Part shown: in pieces, positions 24,452-42,240 of the stretch
How the letters are laid out: each line of letters opens with the position of its first letter
Numbering within the stretch: position 1 is the first letter of the stretch
IMG/VR virus record: IMGVR_UViG_3300033156_000775
Coordinates: 32,001 to 96,000 of that record
Strand: one strand, 5' to 3'
Source: a virus
DNA: 64,000 bases
Program-made: the position numbers and the translations under genes
The notes under the pieces: model-generated
The model's input: only the letters and a program-made list of their open reading frames with translations
Databases searched by the model: none
What the model was told of the DNA's origin: nothing

Positions 24452-25100
24452 GATTGTGAAGCAATGTCCATAAAGTGGAAAGTGTATGATTCACTAGGAA
24501 ACCTAGTAGGCTACTTCTATAAGGAAAATGATAAAGTAGCTCTTGAGGACTTATCTGGAAAAGTCCAACATGTAAGGAAAGATCTGACATTAAAGCAAGC
24601 TGTAAGGATTCTTCTTAGCGAAGAATAGATCTTAAGCTAAATAGAGGAACGAAAAGAATGAAGCAGCTAACATTCTATGACTTTGAAGGGTTTAGAGAGC
24701 TATGTCACTTCTTTGATGAAGTGCATGAGGAGCTAGCTGACATGTATGAGGCATTGAAGAAACCTAGAGCATATATCAAGGTTGAGCTGACAGGATACAC
24801 TGGAGATAAAAGAGATGTTCTGGAGATCAAGATCCCTAATAGTGTAGTCCGGACTACACTCTAGGAAAGGTCTAAAATGAATAGTGGAAAAGCTAAAGTC
24901 CATTTTAGAGATGTCTACTCTCTAGAGAGACACAGAACTAGGCTGATAAGGATAGGGATAGATCCTAGAGAGCTAGAGGTAAAGTATGACGTAACAACTG
25001 GGAAGCTATTCCTACTTGTTCCCTCAACAGTCCCTGTACGCCTTAAAGCTCAGATTACAATGAAGAAGTAGCCCCTGAAATCCTTCTATTTTTTAGGAAG

Positions 25101-25162
25101 CCAGCTGAAGCAATAGAAGCGTCTAAGTCCTGGCTTCTACCTACATTTGTAGGCTCAGCTGG
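25101..25162 (+). promoter_or_regulatory. Three-way-junction RNA structure in the leader of the ubiquitin-like operon
   Basis: CCAGCTGA/TCAGCTGG closing stem encloses TAGAAGC/GCTTCTA and CCTAC/GTAGG hairpins. Confidence 0.45.
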
Positions 25163-25193
25163 AGGCATCTAGACTGAAAGAGGTATGTGAACA

Positions 25194-25451
25194 ATGTCTG
25201 ATGAAGGAAACGTTTGGACCACTCCAGAGCCTAAGGTGCCTCCTACCATACAGGTAGGGGACAAAGAATTCAAGGTTGAGCTAGAGAGTGACTTTGTGTC
25301 CACTATACTTGGGATCGTAAGATCCCTAGGTATAGGTAGGTTCCTAGTGAAGTACAATGGCTCAGTGATCACACCAGCTGAAGCACCAGACACATTCGAG
25401 GACTATGCTGGAAAAACAATCGTAATAGAGCCAGTTGATGAAGCTGGATAA
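25194..25451 (+). CDS. Ubiquitin-like (beta-grasp) protein
   Basis: 85 aa with a beta-grasp-like pattern, ending IVIEPVDEAG (C-terminal Gly); first gene of an operon with E2, E1 and JAB genes. Confidence 0.7.
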   Translation: MSDEGNVWTTPEPKVPPTIQVGDKEFKVELESDFVSTILGIVRSLGIGRFLVKYNGSVITPAEAPDTFEDYAGKTIVIEPVDEAG

Positions 25452-25483
25452 GAGCTTCTACACACTGGCTCACTTTTTTTTTC

Positions 25484-26635
25484 ATGGAGGATGTTTATAT
25501 GAGGCTTGTTTTCAAGAAGGATGGTGAAAGGCCTCCCAACTTCTATATTGAAATTTCCTATGAAGAGAAAGACCTGATTAACAATTATATCTATGAGAGT
25601 GGAGTTTACTATATCAGTGACAAGATCTACCTGACCAATGCCACTGTGGCTAGAGCTCTAGGTCTCTCATCCAGATATTTGGACTATCATCCATTTATGA
25701 GTAGTTTTACTTCTAGGGAGCTCTTAAGTGCAGCCAAGATAGACATTGAAGATCCTGATGAAAGACAAAAGCTCATCTCTTCAGTGTACAAATACCTGAA
25801 AAACAGGCTTGAGATAGCCATGTCCAAGACTGTTAGGGATGAACGTTCTATTCCCCTAGACATATCTCCATCCCTAGGAGAAATGAATGTAAGCCTAGAG
25901 GAAGTAGGAAAGATAGGGACACCTTTCCTCATCTCTATCGGGGACAAGGTGTTTGAGGCTAAGCTAGTAAAGGAGATTGACAGCTTCAGAGACTACATGC
26001 AGAGAAGGCTGAAGCAGATAGTGGGGGCATATAGAAACCACATTACAGCTACTCTCAGTGCCCTACGTGACGAGTATGATAGGAAACTAGAGGAAATAGA
26101 AAAAACCAGGGAAACAATGATCCCAATGCCTAACATCACTCTTAGTGACTTAGCTACTGGCATGAGAATATGTAGGAACAACCAGTACCTAGAGGTTTAT
26201 CTGCCAGTGAAGGTAGAGATCAAAAGAGTCTTTTACAACAAGAAATCTTTTACATTGAAAAAGGAGTACTGGTGTACTCTCAGAGGACTAGCTGGACTAG
26301 CACTGGATCGTGATCTTACAATAGTGTCAACCAAGTTTGTGAGGTCTAAGAGGGCAAGTAGGGGAGTTAGGCATCCTAACGTGAATGATGATGGAATGGT
26401 GTGTCTTGGCTATACTAGACAGATCCTAGGTAGGAGGCTAAACGACATACATGATGCTTACACATGGATATATTCAGTGGTTGATTTGCTGTCCGTACCT
26501 AACTTCGATGATGCATACGATGTCCATGTTTCACAATGGGCTAGGGAGGTCTTTGATGCTCTGGAAAGTGGCCACTCAAGTGAGGTAGTAGAGGAAGTGG
26601 CTACTCTTCCTTCAGAAGTAGTGTGGAGGACATAA
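25484..26635 (+). CDS. E2 ubiquitin-conjugating-like protein with an N-terminal coiled-coil extension
   Basis: HPNVNDDGMVCLG matches the E2 HPN..G.(I/V)CL catalytic motif, and downstream LLSVPNFDDAY matches the E2 LL..PN..D motif. Confidence 0.8.
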   Translation: MEDVYMRLVFKKDGERPPNFYIEISYEEKDLINNYIYESGVYYISDKIYLTNATVARALGLSSRYLDYHPFMSSFTSRELLSAAKIDIEDPDERQKLISSVYKYLKNRLEIAMSKTVRDERSIPLDISPSLGEMNVSLEEVGKIGTPFLISIGDKVFEAKLVKEIDSFRDYMQRRLKQIVGAYRNHITATLSALRDEYDRKLEEIEKTRETMIPMPNITLSDLATGMRICRNNQYLEVYLPVKVEIKRVFYNKKSFTLKKEYWCTLRGLAGLALDRDLTIVSTKFVRSKRASRGVRHPNVNDDGMVCLGYTRQILGRRLNDIHDAYTWIYSVVDLLSVPNFDDAYDVHVSQWAREVFDALESGHSSEVVEEVATLPSEVVWRT

Positions 26636-26638
26636 CTA

Positions 26639-27277
26639 TTGTACGCTAGGCAGTCTAGTTTAAATCTCCATATTCCAAGTGACATTGGGATCATCGGGTG
26701 TGGAGGCATAGGCTCATGGGTAGCCATCTACTCTGCTATGGGAGGAGTAAGGACAATCAGCTTGTTTGACCCTGACATCCTAGAGATCCATAACCTGAAT
26801 AGACTTCCATATCCTGAGAGTGCTGTGGGCATGAAGAAAGTAGATGTCCTTAGAGAATACCTAGTCCACATTAGGCCTCAGAGTGAGGTATTTGCCTACG
26901 ATAGACGTATTTCAAGGGACAATGCAACCCTACTTCACAAGTGTAAAATAGTCTTTGACTGTACAGATAGCACCAGAGCCCATAGGTTGATAGAGGGCTT
27001 ATGGGTCAAGAAGAGCTTTACTGATCTGATTAGAGCCTCATATGATGGTGACCATTACACCTTGTCCAAGAACCTTCGTTTAGAGAGCATGTCTTGGGGA
27101 AATGAAACCTCTGGGTACCAGATTGTCCCCAGCTGGGTCATCCCAGCATCGTTCATAGCCCAGATTGCATGTTGGTTGGCATATGCTGAGGATGCCCCTG
27201 AAAGATACTTTCTTTCTAACAGTTTAAGGAATACTGTTAACCGTTTCATTTATGGAGGTAAGACCACAATTGACTAG
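26639..27277 (+). CDS. E1/ThiF-family adenylyltransferase
   Basis: YARQ, IIGCGGIGS, DPDILEIHNLNR, KVD and FDCTDS motifs. Confidence 0.9.
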   Translation: MYARQSSLNLHIPSDIGIIGCGGIGSWVAIYSAMGGVRTISLFDPDILEIHNLNRLPYPESAVGMKKVDVLREYLVHIRPQSEVFAYDRRISRDNATLLHKCKIVFDCTDSTRAHRLIEGLWVKKSFTDLIRASYDGDHYTLSKNLRLESMSWGNETSGYQIVPSWVIPASFIAQIACWLAYAEDAPERYFLSNSLRNTVNRFIYGGKTTID

Positions 27278-27379
27278 AAGGAGGAGAAAAAAGAAGAGGA
27301 AAGCTACAGAGGAAACAGGTGGCATACTAGTAGTAGTGGATGATAGGGATAGGAGCAGTGAATTGTCATACCATATCCG

Positions 27380-27907
27380 TTGATTGCCAGGATCTCCAGC
27401 CTAGTTTCTAGACTTCATACTGAGTGGCTAGGTTACTTGGACTATGAACAGGTTGAGGACAATGGTAGACTTGTGTACAGAGCTACAGAGATTACTATCC
27501 CAGATCAGGAGGTCACATACTCATCGGTAAACGTTAACGATCCTGCTATAGGGATAGGTAAAGGAGTCATCCACTGTCATCCCTGGAAGGGATATTCATC
27601 TCATTCTAACACTGATGAGGACTACGTTGATAGGAATCATCCCTTCAGCATAGTTGTAAACAAGGACTTGGACTTCTCTGTAAAAGCTGTAGTAGACGTC
27701 CCATGTGGGTCTAGGATACTAGTAGATGGGGAAGTAGAAATTGAATATCCAGATGTGGATACCAAGTCCTTCCTAGAGGAGGCTAAGAGCAAAATCAAGG
27801 AGAAGAAGTATGTCTACAGATACTCTGCATCTAGGAAAAAGTCATCAGGGATAACTGCTATGGAGTATGGGTACCTAGATCCATACTCATATTCCTGGAT
27901 GCCGTAG
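27380..27907 (+). CDS. JAB/MPN (JAMM) metalloprotease, putative Ubl deconjugase; 5' end possibly frameshifted
   Basis: EWLGYL Glu, IPDQEV, HCHP..SHSNTD (HxH..S..D). Confidence 0.85.
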   Translation: MIARISSLVSRLHTEWLGYLDYEQVEDNGRLVYRATEITIPDQEVTYSSVNVNDPAIGIGKGVIHCHPWKGYSSHSNTDEDYVDRNHPFSIVVNKDLDFSVKAVVDVPCGSRILVDGEVEIEYPDVDTKSFLEEAKSKIKEKKYVYRYSASRKKSSGITAMEYGYLDPYSYSWMP

Positions 27908-28061
27908 TCCGGTCTACATCTAGAGAATGATAGACTATGCCTCTAGCTCTTCTAATCATATCGTTAGTTGTATGGATAGTTGACTTTATACGTAGACCTA
28001 ATCTATGGGAGCATTTACCCCTATCTGAGCGTTACAGACAGAAGTTTATACGGGACTGTCC

Positions 28062-28358
28062 ATGACCCAGTATAGAGATCTCCCTAACCTATTGCCAGAT
28101 CCTTTGAAAAGAGTCCAGCATAGGTTGGTTATGGCTAAGCTTGTGCTTGCCATTCAGTCCTTGTCCAATGACACATTCACTATACATGACCTGATACCTC
28201 TTGTTAGGATTGGAAACAGACGCTTACTCTCCAAATACCTTCTATACCTCTATAGAGAGGGCTATCTGTCCCTTGTTGGAAAGGCAAATTACAGGAGACT
28301 GTCTGTTTACTCTAGAGAGGAAAAGATCTTCACTGTCTTTGATACTGGGATGAAATGA
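28062..28358 (+). CDS. Winged-helix DNA-binding protein (putative)
   Basis: FTIHDL..LSKYLLYLYREGYLSLVG pattern. Confidence 0.5.
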   Translation: MTQYRDLPNLLPDPLKRVQHRLVMAKLVLAIQSLSNDTFTIHDLIPLVRIGNRRLLSKYLLYLYREGYLSLVGKANYRRLSVYSREEKIFTVFDTGMK

Positions 28359-28605: not shown

Positions 28606-29841
28606 ATGGAAAGCTCTATGGAATGGATACCATCTGAAATACTGTCATCAATTAGAGAGGAGCTCAAGGGAGCTAGAAGTATCCAGGATATCAGGAGTAT
28701 TGTAGTCCAAGCTACAAGATGTAAGCCTGGTGACATTAAAGATTTCCATTACAAGCTTGGAGGACATGACTGGAAAGGGGTGATCTATACTAAACGGAAC
28801 ACTCTTATGGGATCAGTATTCTCACTGTTTGACAGTAAACCCTTTGTAGTTAGAGGCTATCCTAAGATCAGATATGCATTAGATTCTAAACTCTTAGGAA
28901 AGGAAGTAACTGTACAGATGAAGTATGACGGGACTAACATTGGACTTTTCCTCCTACCTAATGGAGAGATCATGGGAAAGACTAGGCTGATGCCTAGATG
29001 GGATGTCCAGTCTTTACAGGCTATGAAGAGACAGGTTTCTCATTGGAAAGAGCTCTTTACGAAGATAGATGATGGCTATCTCCTTAAGCAAGTCAAGTAT
29101 CTAGCTGAAGATGACTACATGATATTTGGAGAGCTCTATGGATATCTAAATCCTGGAGAATTCATTAAATATTCAATTCCAATAGCCTTCAAAGCTTTCG
29201 ATATAGTTGACACTAGGACACTAAAGTTTCTTAGCTCTAAAGACATGGAGGATCTATGCTATGAGCTGGACATTCCATATGTAGAGGAGCTATGGCATGG
29301 TATCCTAACTAGGAAAGAGGTTGAACGAATAGAGTACGAAGCTAAACAGTATGTAAGAGAGGATGGCTATGAGGGATTTGTAGCTAAGCATTTCTCCCCT
29401 ATAGATAACGACATGCACTTCTGCAAGCTTAAATGTGAAGAGATAAAGGAGAAAGCCTGGAAGCTTAGACCTACTGGAATCCCAATTTCTATTATTCGTA
29501 AAGCCATACGAAAGGCTATGGAAAGCTACCCATACTATGACAAAGTAGATCAGCTATATCCAGTAGTTAGAGAGGAGCTCCTAGAAGAAGTAGAGCCCTC
29601 ATTGGTAGATGAATCAGAGAACAAGATAAGATCTGTTATTAGAAGAGTACTGTCTCCTACACCTGAGGAGCTAAAGAAGTCCATAAGGGAAATTATGCTT
29701 GAGCTTAGGGAGAGAGGTATGGACTTGAACAAGAAGGGAGAAGTGCTCCCAGCTCTAGCTCATCGTCTAGGAGACATATCAGGAAAAATGCTTTACAGAC
29801 TTTACACTCAAGTCTTATTTGAGATGGAAAGTGAAGTGTAG
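28606..29841 (+). CDS. ATP-dependent RNA ligase (Rnl family)
   Basis: RGYPKI, motif I KYDGTN, FGELYG, AFDI, EGFVAK and KLK motifs; no OB domain; helical C-terminus. Confidence 0.8.
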   Translation: MESSMEWIPSEILSSIREELKGARSIQDIRSIVVQATRCKPGDIKDFHYKLGGHDWKGVIYTKRNTLMGSVFSLFDSKPFVVRGYPKIRYALDSKLLGKEVTVQMKYDGTNIGLFLLPNGEIMGKTRLMPRWDVQSLQAMKRQVSHWKELFTKIDDGYLLKQVKYLAEDDYMIFGELYGYLNPGEFIKYSIPIAFKAFDIVDTRTLKFLSSKDMEDLCYELDIPYVEELWHGILTRKEVERIEYEAKQYVREDGYEGFVAKHFSPIDNDMHFCKLKCEEIKEKAWKLRPTGIPISIIRKAIRKAMESYPYYDKVDQLYPVVREELLEEVEPSLVDESENKIRSVIRRVLSPTPEELKKSIREIMLELRERGMDLNKKGEVLPALAHRLGDISGKMLYRLYTQVLFEMESEV

Positions 29842-30095
29842 TCCGGACTACATTCTTAAGGAGAGTTTCCTAATGAGAGAAGAATGTATAAAGGAAATTC
29901 TAAAGTCCTACTATAAGTGGAAAGCTGTAGGTGTAGCTGGTATCTGGATAGGAGCTGGAGTGGCCTGTTTATCCTCTACAGGAGATATCCCAGCATTAAT
30001 CATATTCCTAGCTATGTTCTCATCTCTGCTCTATACTATGATAGGTGCTCCTGACTTCTATGCTAAGTGGATAAGGAAGAAAGGAGACTAGCTCA

Positions 30096-41568: not shown

Positions 41569-42240
41569 ATGAAGAGAATGTCCAAAATAGATAGGCAATT
41601 CCTACATGAGTTTCTTTACAGAGGAAAAGAGCTAGAATCCCTAGAAGATAAACAAGTTACGCTGTGTGGGTGTGGAGCTCTAGGGACTTGGACAGCTGTG
41701 TTCCTAGCTAGGAGTGGACTTAGACATTTCAGGCTGATAGATATGGATAAGGTTGAGATACACAACACTTCTACTCAAGCATTCTTCCTAGAGAACCTTA
41801 ACCAATACAAGGCTACTGCTCTGTCCAGAATCCTCTACAGAATCAACAGAGCTAGATCCTCAATCTACAATGAGGAGCTAACAGCTGACAATGTGTCCCT
41901 AGCTTTCGATGACACAGACTTGGTTATTTGTACATTTGACAACTATAAATCTAGAAAGCTGGTTAGGGACAAGGCCCTAGAGCTAGACTTTCCAACAGTG
42001 TTTGCAGGTATGAATGGAAGCCTAAACTATGGGGAGGTAGCTTGGGCTGAGGATTACAATCCTCCTAGAGATCCTAAATCTAGAGATATAGACCCATGCA
42101 ATTATCCATTAGCAACAACTTTAGTGGTGTTGACTTCAGCTGTACTAGCTGAGGTCTCTCTAAACTATCTCCTTAAAGGATTCAAGTTCTATAAGCCATT
42201 TGGCTTTTCATTTAGCTCTTTCCAGGTAATTTCAAAATAA
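41569..42240 (+). CDS. Second E1/ThiF-family protein
   Basis: HEFLYRG, LCGCGALG, DMDKVEIHN, CTFDN; candidate catalytic Cys in DPCNYPLA. Confidence 0.85.
   Translation: MKRMSKIDRQFLHEFLYRGKELESLEDKQVTLCGCGALGTWTAVFLARSGLRHFRLIDMDKVEIHNTSTQAFFLENLNQYKATALSRILYRINRARSSIYNEELTADNVSLAFDDTDLVICTFDNYKSRKLVRDKALELDFPTVFAGMNGSLNYGEVAWAEDYNPPRDPKSRDIDPCNYPLATTLVVLTSAVLAEVSLNYLLKGFKFYKPFGFSFSSFQVISK

Follow-up and report, generated by a model that had tools for sequence, protein, structure and literature searches.

Operons that encode a ubiquitin-like protein (Ubl), E1 and E2 enzymes, and a JAB peptidase were catalogued in bacteria by Iyer et al. 2006, together with the Ubl and JAB tail proteins of lambdoid phages. 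Here, we describe such a gene set in a virus. It is a four-gene cassette, ordered Ubl-E2-E1-JAB, in a stretch of 64,000 nucleotides of DNA (hereafter the window) that covers bases 32001-96000 of the 107,029-bp IMG/VR virus record IMGVR_UViG_3300033156_000775. Our search of the literature turned up no account of a complete cassette for conjugation in a virus of prokaryotes. The evidence presented below makes it likely that the locus is a genuine, vertically inherited viral Ubl conjugation cassette, with the mechanism and the role during infection that we propose at the end of this work.

The Bil operons of bacteria (bioRxiv 10.1101/2023.09.26.559546, 10.1101/2023.09.04.556158) resemble the viral cassette in encoding a Ubl with a C-terminal Gly, a separate Cys-type E2, an E1, and a JAB, and in having no E3. 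These operons act against phages, attaching the Ubl to a protein of the phage tail. The differences are nevertheless numerous. The Bil genes follow the order Ubl-E2-DUB-E1 (where DUB stands for deubiquitinase), whereas JAB comes last in the viral cassette. BilD is a large pseudo-dimeric E1 (IAD, AAD, and helical CYS domain, with a Zn site and Cys417), whereas the viral E1 has only 212 residues, no Cys in the crossover loop, and no Zn motif. The E2s of the Bil type (6d and CEHH classes) are devoid of the classical His, while the viral E2 retains the HPN motif. The Ubl of type II Bil needs processing by the JAB, while the viral one is made ready. Finally, Bil is a cellular defence and the present cassette is viral.

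The Bub operons, which are located on mobile elements (bioRxiv 10.1101/2024.11.21.623953), are alike in other respects. Their E1 is minimal and of the homodimer type, lacks a loop Cys, and has an invariant loop Tyr, and the type I operons include a JAB/JAMM protein. The Bub E1 forms an oxyester on this invariant crossover-loop Tyr. In contrast, the Bub E2s use a catalytic Ser and form oxyesters only, whereas the viral E2 has an invariant Cys. Furthermore, Bub systems have the JAB fused to the E1 and produce the Ubl as a BubAB pre-protein, whereas these are separate genes in the viral cassette. Gene fusion is also what distinguishes type II CBASS (an anti-phage signalling system based on cyclic oligonucleotides, Cap2/Cap3), where E2 and E1 are a single protein that works on a CD-NTase; the PADLOC E1-E2 models match only the adenylation domain of the viral E1.

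The eukaryote-like ubiquitin operons of archaea (Caldiarchaeum subterraneum, PMC5654768, PMC3082918; Asgard) also bring together a classical E2 of the HPN type, a modifier with the ubiquitin fold, an E1, and a peptidase resembling JAMM/Rpn11. These operons further include a small RING E3, whereas a six-frame scan of the viral genome with the one RING model tried (zf-RING_2) gave no match, and the small open reading frames (ORFs) neighbouring the cassette have no Cys/His patterns. We found no relation at the sequence level between the archaeal operons and the viral Ubl, and the viral E2 adds an N-terminal region of about 220 residues.

Two groups of viruses are known to have parts of such systems. 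Lambdoid and T1-like phages encode TAPI (a Ubl) and TAPK (JAB with NlpC/P60) (PMC1779556), which, as in our case, place the Ubl of a tailed virus, with its conserved C-terminal Gly, beside a JAB. These pairs have neither E1 nor E2 and lie in the tail module; in the cassette both enzymes are present, and its place is outside the structural module. The second group was described by Rambo et al. (bioRxiv 10.1101/2021.07.29.454249), who reported complete "Nidhogg" genomes linked to Helarchaeota by CRISPR spacers, in a study of genomes of ~21.9-117.5 kb from deep-sea hydrothermal sediment. The likeness to our virus extends to Caudovirales-like structural genes, Ro60 (TROVE and vWA), RNA ligase, ATP-dependent DNA ligase, and several ThiF/E1 genes. 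Nidhogg has three E1 homologues, which were proposed to exploit the Ubl and E2 of the host. That paper names no viral E2, Ubl, or JAB, whereas the present genome has two ThiF genes and its own Ubl, E2, and JAB. Among the known operons with Ubl, E1, E2, and JAB, what sets the cassette apart is that a classical HPN-Cys E2 with a long N-terminal module is associated with a minimal, Cys-less E1, as well as its gene order, its viral and probably archaeal setting, and its dedicated RNA leader.

Conservation of the cassette in related viruses

The original prediction, made from the letters of the window alone, described four consecutive co-oriented genes: an 85-residue protein ending in Gly, an E2, a ThiF/E1, and a JAMM protease, all belonging to the virus itself. 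The four ORFs are indeed present on the same strand at this place (Table 1). The virus record has direct terminal repeats and is estimated to be complete. Among its genes are those for a capsid protein of the phage type, a large terminase, NrdD, and two ligases, one an ATP-dependent DNA ligase and the other an RNA ligase, as well as a Ro60 locus. A scan of metagenomes revealed seven related contigs, all of them ordered Ubl-E2-E1-JAB as far as each contig extends. The viral genes flanking the cassette are also conserved in the relatives (a 190-aa ORF, a 64-aa ORF, and the RNA ligase). The attribution of the machinery to the virus is thus supported by a complete genome with terminal repeats, capsid and terminase genes, and a cassette syntenic with its viral neighbours.

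The four genes evolve at very different rates. Relative to the window, the distant clade shows 78-83% identity in the Ubl, 58-63% in the E1 and the JAB, and 38-43% in the E2. The ratio of nonsynonymous to synonymous substitution rates (dN/dS) is 0.06-0.19 in all four genes, a range that leaves out the comparison of the E2 with that of contig L005; it is 0.10-0.16 for the Ubl and ~0.10 for the JAB. The dN of the Ubl, ~0.10, is 3-6 times lower than those of the enzymes. Given these ratios and the gene order kept in seven related contigs, the four genes are real and under purifying selection, and they are not chance ORFs. Since the synteny of the cassette and its flanks extends to relatives with an E2 of only ~40% identity, we conclude that this is a long-resident block and not a recent pick-up.

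This pattern of conservation bears on an alternative with the same biochemistry but another role, in which the cassette is antiviral cargo, akin to Bil, that would tag proteins in the virions of competing viruses, a form of superinfection exclusion, and would not serve the virus in its own takeover of the host. The anti-phage activity of the bacterial Bil operons, which modify a tail protein, and the location of Bub on mobile elements provide precedents for such a role. So does the pace of the E2, which diverges faster than its neighbours (40% identity in L005, versus 79% for the RNA ligase), as expected of a recognition module engaged in an arms race. However, in both clades the cassette is a stable, syntenic part of the core and not a variable island, it differs from Bil in gene order, type of E1, and type of E2, and our searches of cellular genomes turned up no homologue that could have been its source. 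We regard antiviral cargo as unlikely and favor a resident conjugation cassette that acts on behalf of its virus.

Table 1. Features of the cassette and of its surroundings, in positions of the window.
Feature	Position	Strand	Description
Structured RNA leader	25101-25168	+	Covarying three-way junction, 5' of the Ubl gene
Ubl	25194-25451	+	85 aa, ends ...DEAG then stop
Terminator-/attenuator-like signal	25452-25482	+	GAGC...GCTC hairpin followed by T9 at 25474-25482
E2	25499-26635	+	378 aa; a longer ORF from ATG 25484 has 383 aa
E1	26639-27277	+	212 aa, ThiF match
JAB 5' fragment	27252-27383	+	43-aa ORF, corresponds to the N-terminal part of P0010, an intact homologue
JAB/JAMM catalytic part	27380-27907	+	175 aa from TTG 27380, invariant JAMM residues
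Small hydrophobic ORF	27937-28065	+	42 aa, directly 3' of the JAB gene
Stand-alone ThiF-family gene	41569-42240	+	223 aa

The modifier

The AlphaFold2 model of the Ubl, built on an alignment of 9 sequences, has a predicted local distance difference test (pLDDT) score of 86, which exceeds 90 in the core, and a predicted template modelling (pTM) score of 0.71. Its strands and helix follow the order beta-beta-alpha-beta...beta. When the model was compared with the PDB using Foldseek, ubiquitin, SUMO, and BAG6-UBL came on top, and NEDD8, ISG15, Ufm1, and UBL domains were also matched, with a probability of 1.00; the ubiquitin of Caldiarchaeum is among these structural matches, at rank 44. An independent aligner, VIA, gave SUMO1 with a Z of 8.4 and a root-mean-square deviation of 2.7 over 70 residues. 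All the 50 VIA matches listed appear to be modules of the ubiquitin superfold (modifiers, UBL/UBX/RBD domains, and Ub/SUMO fusion tags), with top Z of 9.1-8.0. In a library of viral structures, the matches were ubiquitin and SUMO-like proteins of giant viruses. On the basis of this model, we assign the Ubl with confidence to the ubiquitin/SUMO-type beta-grasp fold, in line with the modifier initially suspected. Neither the protein search nor the six-frame scan of the genome gave a match to the Pfam profiles for ubiquitin (PF00240) or ThiS (PF02597).

The C-terminus reads ...IEPVDEAG and is directly followed by the stop codon in 9 out of 9 sequences. The protein is therefore made with a free C-terminal Gly (Gly85), and processing is not needed. 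Identity across the family is high (78-98%). The N-terminal 17 residues (25194-25244; ...NVWTTPEP...PP) are modelled as disordered, with a pLDDT of ~53, and are near-invariant across both clades, which suggests that this tail may be a binding motif.

The E2 and the JAB peptidase

The second ORF contains HPNVNDDGMVCLG and LLSVPNFDD, the two parts of the E2 signature that had been recognized at the outset. Among 9 sequences, H297-P-N299 and C307 are invariant, with the Cys following the Asn at the canonical distance of 8 residues. The protein has no other invariant Cys, and two of its His are invariant. The segment around the active site is also the best conserved, with 56% identity compared with 25-46% elsewhere. 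The UQ_con profile matches residues 295-351 (E 0.0038, sub-threshold), hits 4 of the 9 members of the E2 family (best E 3.6e-4), and, in a six-frame scan of the genome, has the E2 ORF as its only match (E 8.9e-5); the same kind of scan with Prok-E2_D (PF14460) gave zero matches. When PDB sequences were searched, UBC E2s accounted for 35 of the 38 matches, including the top 23, and aligned without gaps over HPN...C...PN (e.g., UBE2C). In a language-model atlas, the domain lies nearest to Prok-E2_D clusters, many of which are viral. These motifs and matches leave the putative E2 reasonably supported.

The most likely start of this gene is ATG 25499, because GGAGGA lies 7 nt upstream and all homologues start there. 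With this start, the N-terminal extension, first put at roughly 250 residues, shrinks to about 220. The extension is family-specific and fast-evolving. It had also been said to contain a coiled coil: a helix of ~50 residues is predicted there (~164-214), but the coiled coil itself is unproven, as the model is of low confidence. In a collection of 5.8 billion proteins, the E2 family consists of nine clusters at 90% identity, all metagenomic and none annotated by Pfam. An exhaustive phmmer search of 1.8 billion representatives with the C-terminal domain found no homologues beyond the E2's own family. The same search matched two long repetitive proteins, which we regarded as spurious.

In the fourth gene product, E15, H65-x-H67, S76, and D79 do not vary among nine sequences and compose the E...HxH...S-x2-D motif of a JAMM protease expected from the first reading of the window. 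The spacing is x8 in the window and x7 in distant relatives. The window protein has zero Pfam/JAB matches, and the six-frame scans with Prok-JAB and JAB/MPN (PF14464 and PF01398) were empty, while distant relatives (P0015-P0017) match Prok-JAB with 16.8-21.5 bits over the HxH..S..D segment. The family profile matched no peptidase among PDB sequences. The nearest clusters in the atlas are viral, and one of them has Prok-JAB on 31% of its members. Overall, the candidate JAB/JAMM assignment is reasonably supported by the invariant motif and by these relatives.

One homologue, P0014, has at its C-terminus a zinc ribbon of the TFIIB type (E 0.0012, under the cut-off); the predicted accessory domains of the JAB vary within the family. 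The small hydrophobic ORF that follows the JAB gene occupies the same position in the distant-clade contigs L005, L008, and L009 (61% identity) and was not found in L003. It may encode a small membrane partner or be unrelated to the cassette.

A minimal E1

The E1 is the only gene of the cassette that sequence profiles assign securely, with 94.9 bits for Pfam ThiF (PF00899) against a cut-off of 28.1 (E 5.6e-27), as anticipated for the third gene. It has an N-terminal Y-x-R-Q motif followed by GCGGIGS and FDCTD, the last two being conserved. Its top matches in the PDB are Uba4, TcdA, ThiF, and MoeB, and it scores below every equivalog cut-off of NCBIfam. Judged by these matches, it is a minimal adenylating enzyme of the ThiF/MoeB type with a single predicted adenylation domain. 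The absence of a CxxC motif and of a crossover-loop Cys, remarked upon in the window, is found in 8 out of 8 cassette E1s. The protein hence lacks the trait required of canonical conjugating E1s (Uba1, Uba5, Atg7, BilD, and Cap2), which is a Cys in the crossover loop or inserted into it. At the same time, Y160 of this loop is invariant in the eight E1s. A direct passage of the Ubl adenylate to the Cys of the E2 is plausible, but Bub points to a second possible route, by way of an oxyester on such a Tyr. The prediction of a complex between the E1 and the Ubl gave a median score of 0.14, the mark being 0.32.

An enzyme of this kind could instead belong to a sulfur carrier system for the thiolation of cofactors or RNA, made of a ThiS/MoaD-like carrier and a ThiF/MoeB-like enzyme, in which the "E2" and the "JAB" would be accessory proteins unrelated to tagging. 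The best matches of the E1, its lack of the catalytic Cys of conjugating E1s, and the richness of the virus in RNA-related genes (RNA ligase, Ro60 locus) would all fit such a system. Other features weigh against it. The model of the Ubl best matches ubiquitin, SUMO, and ISG15, with no ThiS/MoaD among the matches listed, and a ThiS hidden Markov model has no match in the genome. ThiS and MoaD end in -GG, whereas the viral Ubl ends in -AG. In addition, we saw no sulfurtransferase that could be a partner, the HPN...Cys centre of the neighbouring gene product is invariant, and the JAMM peptidase is retained. We consider a sulfur carrier highly improbable compared with a system for protein conjugation.

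A structured RNA leader

The Ubl gene is preceded by a leader of ~68 nt that folds into a Y-shaped three-way junction and ends 26 nt 5' of the start codon. It consists of a stem P1 (CCAGCUGAA/UUCAGCUGG), a P2 hairpin with a near-invariant loop of 12 nt, and a P3 hairpin. The mean column identity across both clades, 88%, is above that of the coding genes. Three representatives have a common fold, with z of -4.1 (L005), -4.3 (L003), and -1.7 (window). In the alignment, 98.5% of the cells pair, versus 19-45% in slid controls, and there are 4 compensatory pairs, a covariation that comes from two clades only and from few independent events. The leader is single-copy in the 107-kb genome (86.8 bits) and has no match in Rfam. 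It is a structured RNA specific to the cassette.

Another, attenuator-like signal separates the Ubl gene from those of the enzymes. In each of the six loci that contain this junction, a short hairpin followed by T8-T9 occupies the same position, directly 3' of the stop codon of the Ubl, and could attenuate read-through into the enzyme genes. A GGAGG-type site precedes each gene downstream of the Ubl. Scans for sigma-70 promoters and for intrinsic terminators gave results at chance level.

An apparent deletion in the JAB gene and other points of doubt

Several observations weigh against the interpretation of the locus as a working conjugation cassette. The first concerns the literature, where we found no characterised precedent for a Cys-less E1 feeding a Cys-type E2. 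The next ones concern the E2, whose 17.3-18.4 bits fall short of the Pfam gathering cut-off for PF00179, which is 27. The profile of the E2 family finds the E2s of the PDB with a weaker score (E 0.23) than the single sequence does. The full-length model has a pLDDT of 49, and below 50 in the region of the active site, so that the UBC fold is unconfirmed by structure. With a model this poor, the Foldseek rows for E2s are weak (E 0.25-0.75), and VIA aligned the long helix only. Similarly, the Prok-JAB scores of the JAB relatives, 17-21 bits, are under the cut-off of 25. The small number of independent events behind the covariation of the leader has to be counted here as well.

The last of these points is an apparent lesion. 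Each JAB homologue is encoded by one ORF, whose length is 209-270 aa (222-243 aa for the closer homologues) and whose Lys/Arg-rich N-terminal tract matches the separate 43-aa ORF of the window. When aligned at the DNA level with L003 and L004, the window is shorter by 52 bp, a length not divisible by 3, at the junction 27362/27363. With this loss, the JAB gene is out of frame and its conserved W...C-P segment is gone. As a result, the cassette may be impaired in this genome. The operon had been described as complete: this holds for its set of genes, but the JAB gene is split here by the frameshifting deletion. The catalytic-domain ORF is intact 3' of the lesion, and the gap may be either a real lesion or an assembly error.

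If the deletion is real, the cassette could be degenerating in this genome, with a JAB that is not made or is mis-regulated and a system that has no deconjugation or is heading to loss. The frameshift relative to two close relatives, the integrity of the single JAB ORF in all eight homologue clusters, and the conserved Trp and C-P motif of the lost segment are what one would expect in this case. They have to be set against a catalytic ORF whose TTG start immediately follows the lesion and in which all the JAMM residues are retained, the integrity of the remaining three genes, and the chance that the assembly is at fault. Degeneration thus seems to us somewhat unlikely.

The virus and its host

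The virus is a tailed virus of roughly 100 kb from a lineage found in sediment or hydrothermal metagenomes. Its terminase is at most 27% identical to that of any deposited phage, and we did not find relatives in IMG/VR, in the species genomes of GTDB, or among deposited phage genomes. Two members of the JAB cluster are short contigs deposited in metagenome-assembled genomes of "Candidatus Bathyarchaeota". These contigs and the likeness to Nidhogg support an archaeal host indirectly; it is probably an archaeon of deep-sea sediments. Within the genome, the cassette is placed among early genes and genes of nucleic-acid metabolism, outside the virion/structural module.

The genome has two detected ThiF genes. 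The one outside the cassette stands alone, with no E2, JAB, or Ubl visible beside it. It also scores 94.9 bits, is ~21% identical to the cassette E1, and, unlike the latter, has a Cys in the crossover-loop region (DIDPCNYP).

We also noticed a 14-bp palindrome, GTAGTCCGGACTAC, which has 26 copies across the window at one mismatch or fewer, when 0 are expected by chance (for example at 24844-24857, 27904-27917, and 29838-29851). There are zero copies within the cassette, from 24858 to 27903, and a near-copy supplies the stop codon of the JAB gene (TAG 27905-27907).

Proposed mechanism and implications

We propose that the E1, as a homodimer by analogy with MoeB and ThiF, would use ATP to adenylate Gly85 of the Ubl. 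Because the E1 has no loop Cys, two routes can be envisaged for the next step: the acyl-adenylate could be resolved by attack of Cys307 of the E2, or it could pass through a transient oxyester on Tyr160, as in Bub. The resulting E2~Ubl thioester would then be discharged onto lysines of the targets without a separate E3, with the ~220 N-terminal residues of the E2 acting as the module that selects substrates. The JAB would trim or reverse the conjugates. Expression of the cassette appears to be tuned, with the RNA leader ahead of the Ubl gene and, after it, the hairpin and T9, which would result in an excess of Ubl over the enzymes. As for the role of the system, we favor the remodelling of host or viral proteins during infection, because the cassette is found among early and nucleic-acid genes and not in the virion module. 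The suggestions first made from the window, host defence proteins or competing viruses as targets and the coiled coil as their selector, stay hypothetical.

A broader proposal is that archaeal tailed viruses, possibly infecting Asgard or Bathyarchaeia, run a self-contained and E3-free pathway in which a classical HPN-Cys E2 is charged by a minimal ThiF-like, Cys-less E1, the Ubl being transferred straight from the adenylate or by way of a Tyr oxyester, with a dedicated structured RNA leader governing the pathway. We put it forward tentatively, as possible rather than probable. If true, such a pathway would occupy, in its mechanism, a place between sulfur-carrier adenylases and cascades of the eukaryotic type. 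We did not find in the literature a description of a minimal, Cys-less E1 combined with an E2 of the classical Cys type, and this compact system of four proteins (85, 378, 212, and ~230 aa) allows one to test whether an E1 thioester is needed at all. The RNA leader offers a testable handle on its regulation.

The characterised prokaryotic operons with Ubl, E1, E2, and JAB are antiviral. Here, the same set of genes is part of the core of a virus, and the direction of the arms race may thus be reversed. The study of Nidhogg, the only paper that we found on apparently related viruses, assumed that Ubl and E2 are borrowed from the host; the cassette shows that the virus can supply every part. Finally, if the host is an Asgard or a related archaeon, the cassette bears on the movement of ubiquitin machinery between viruses and the archaeal ancestors of eukaryotes.

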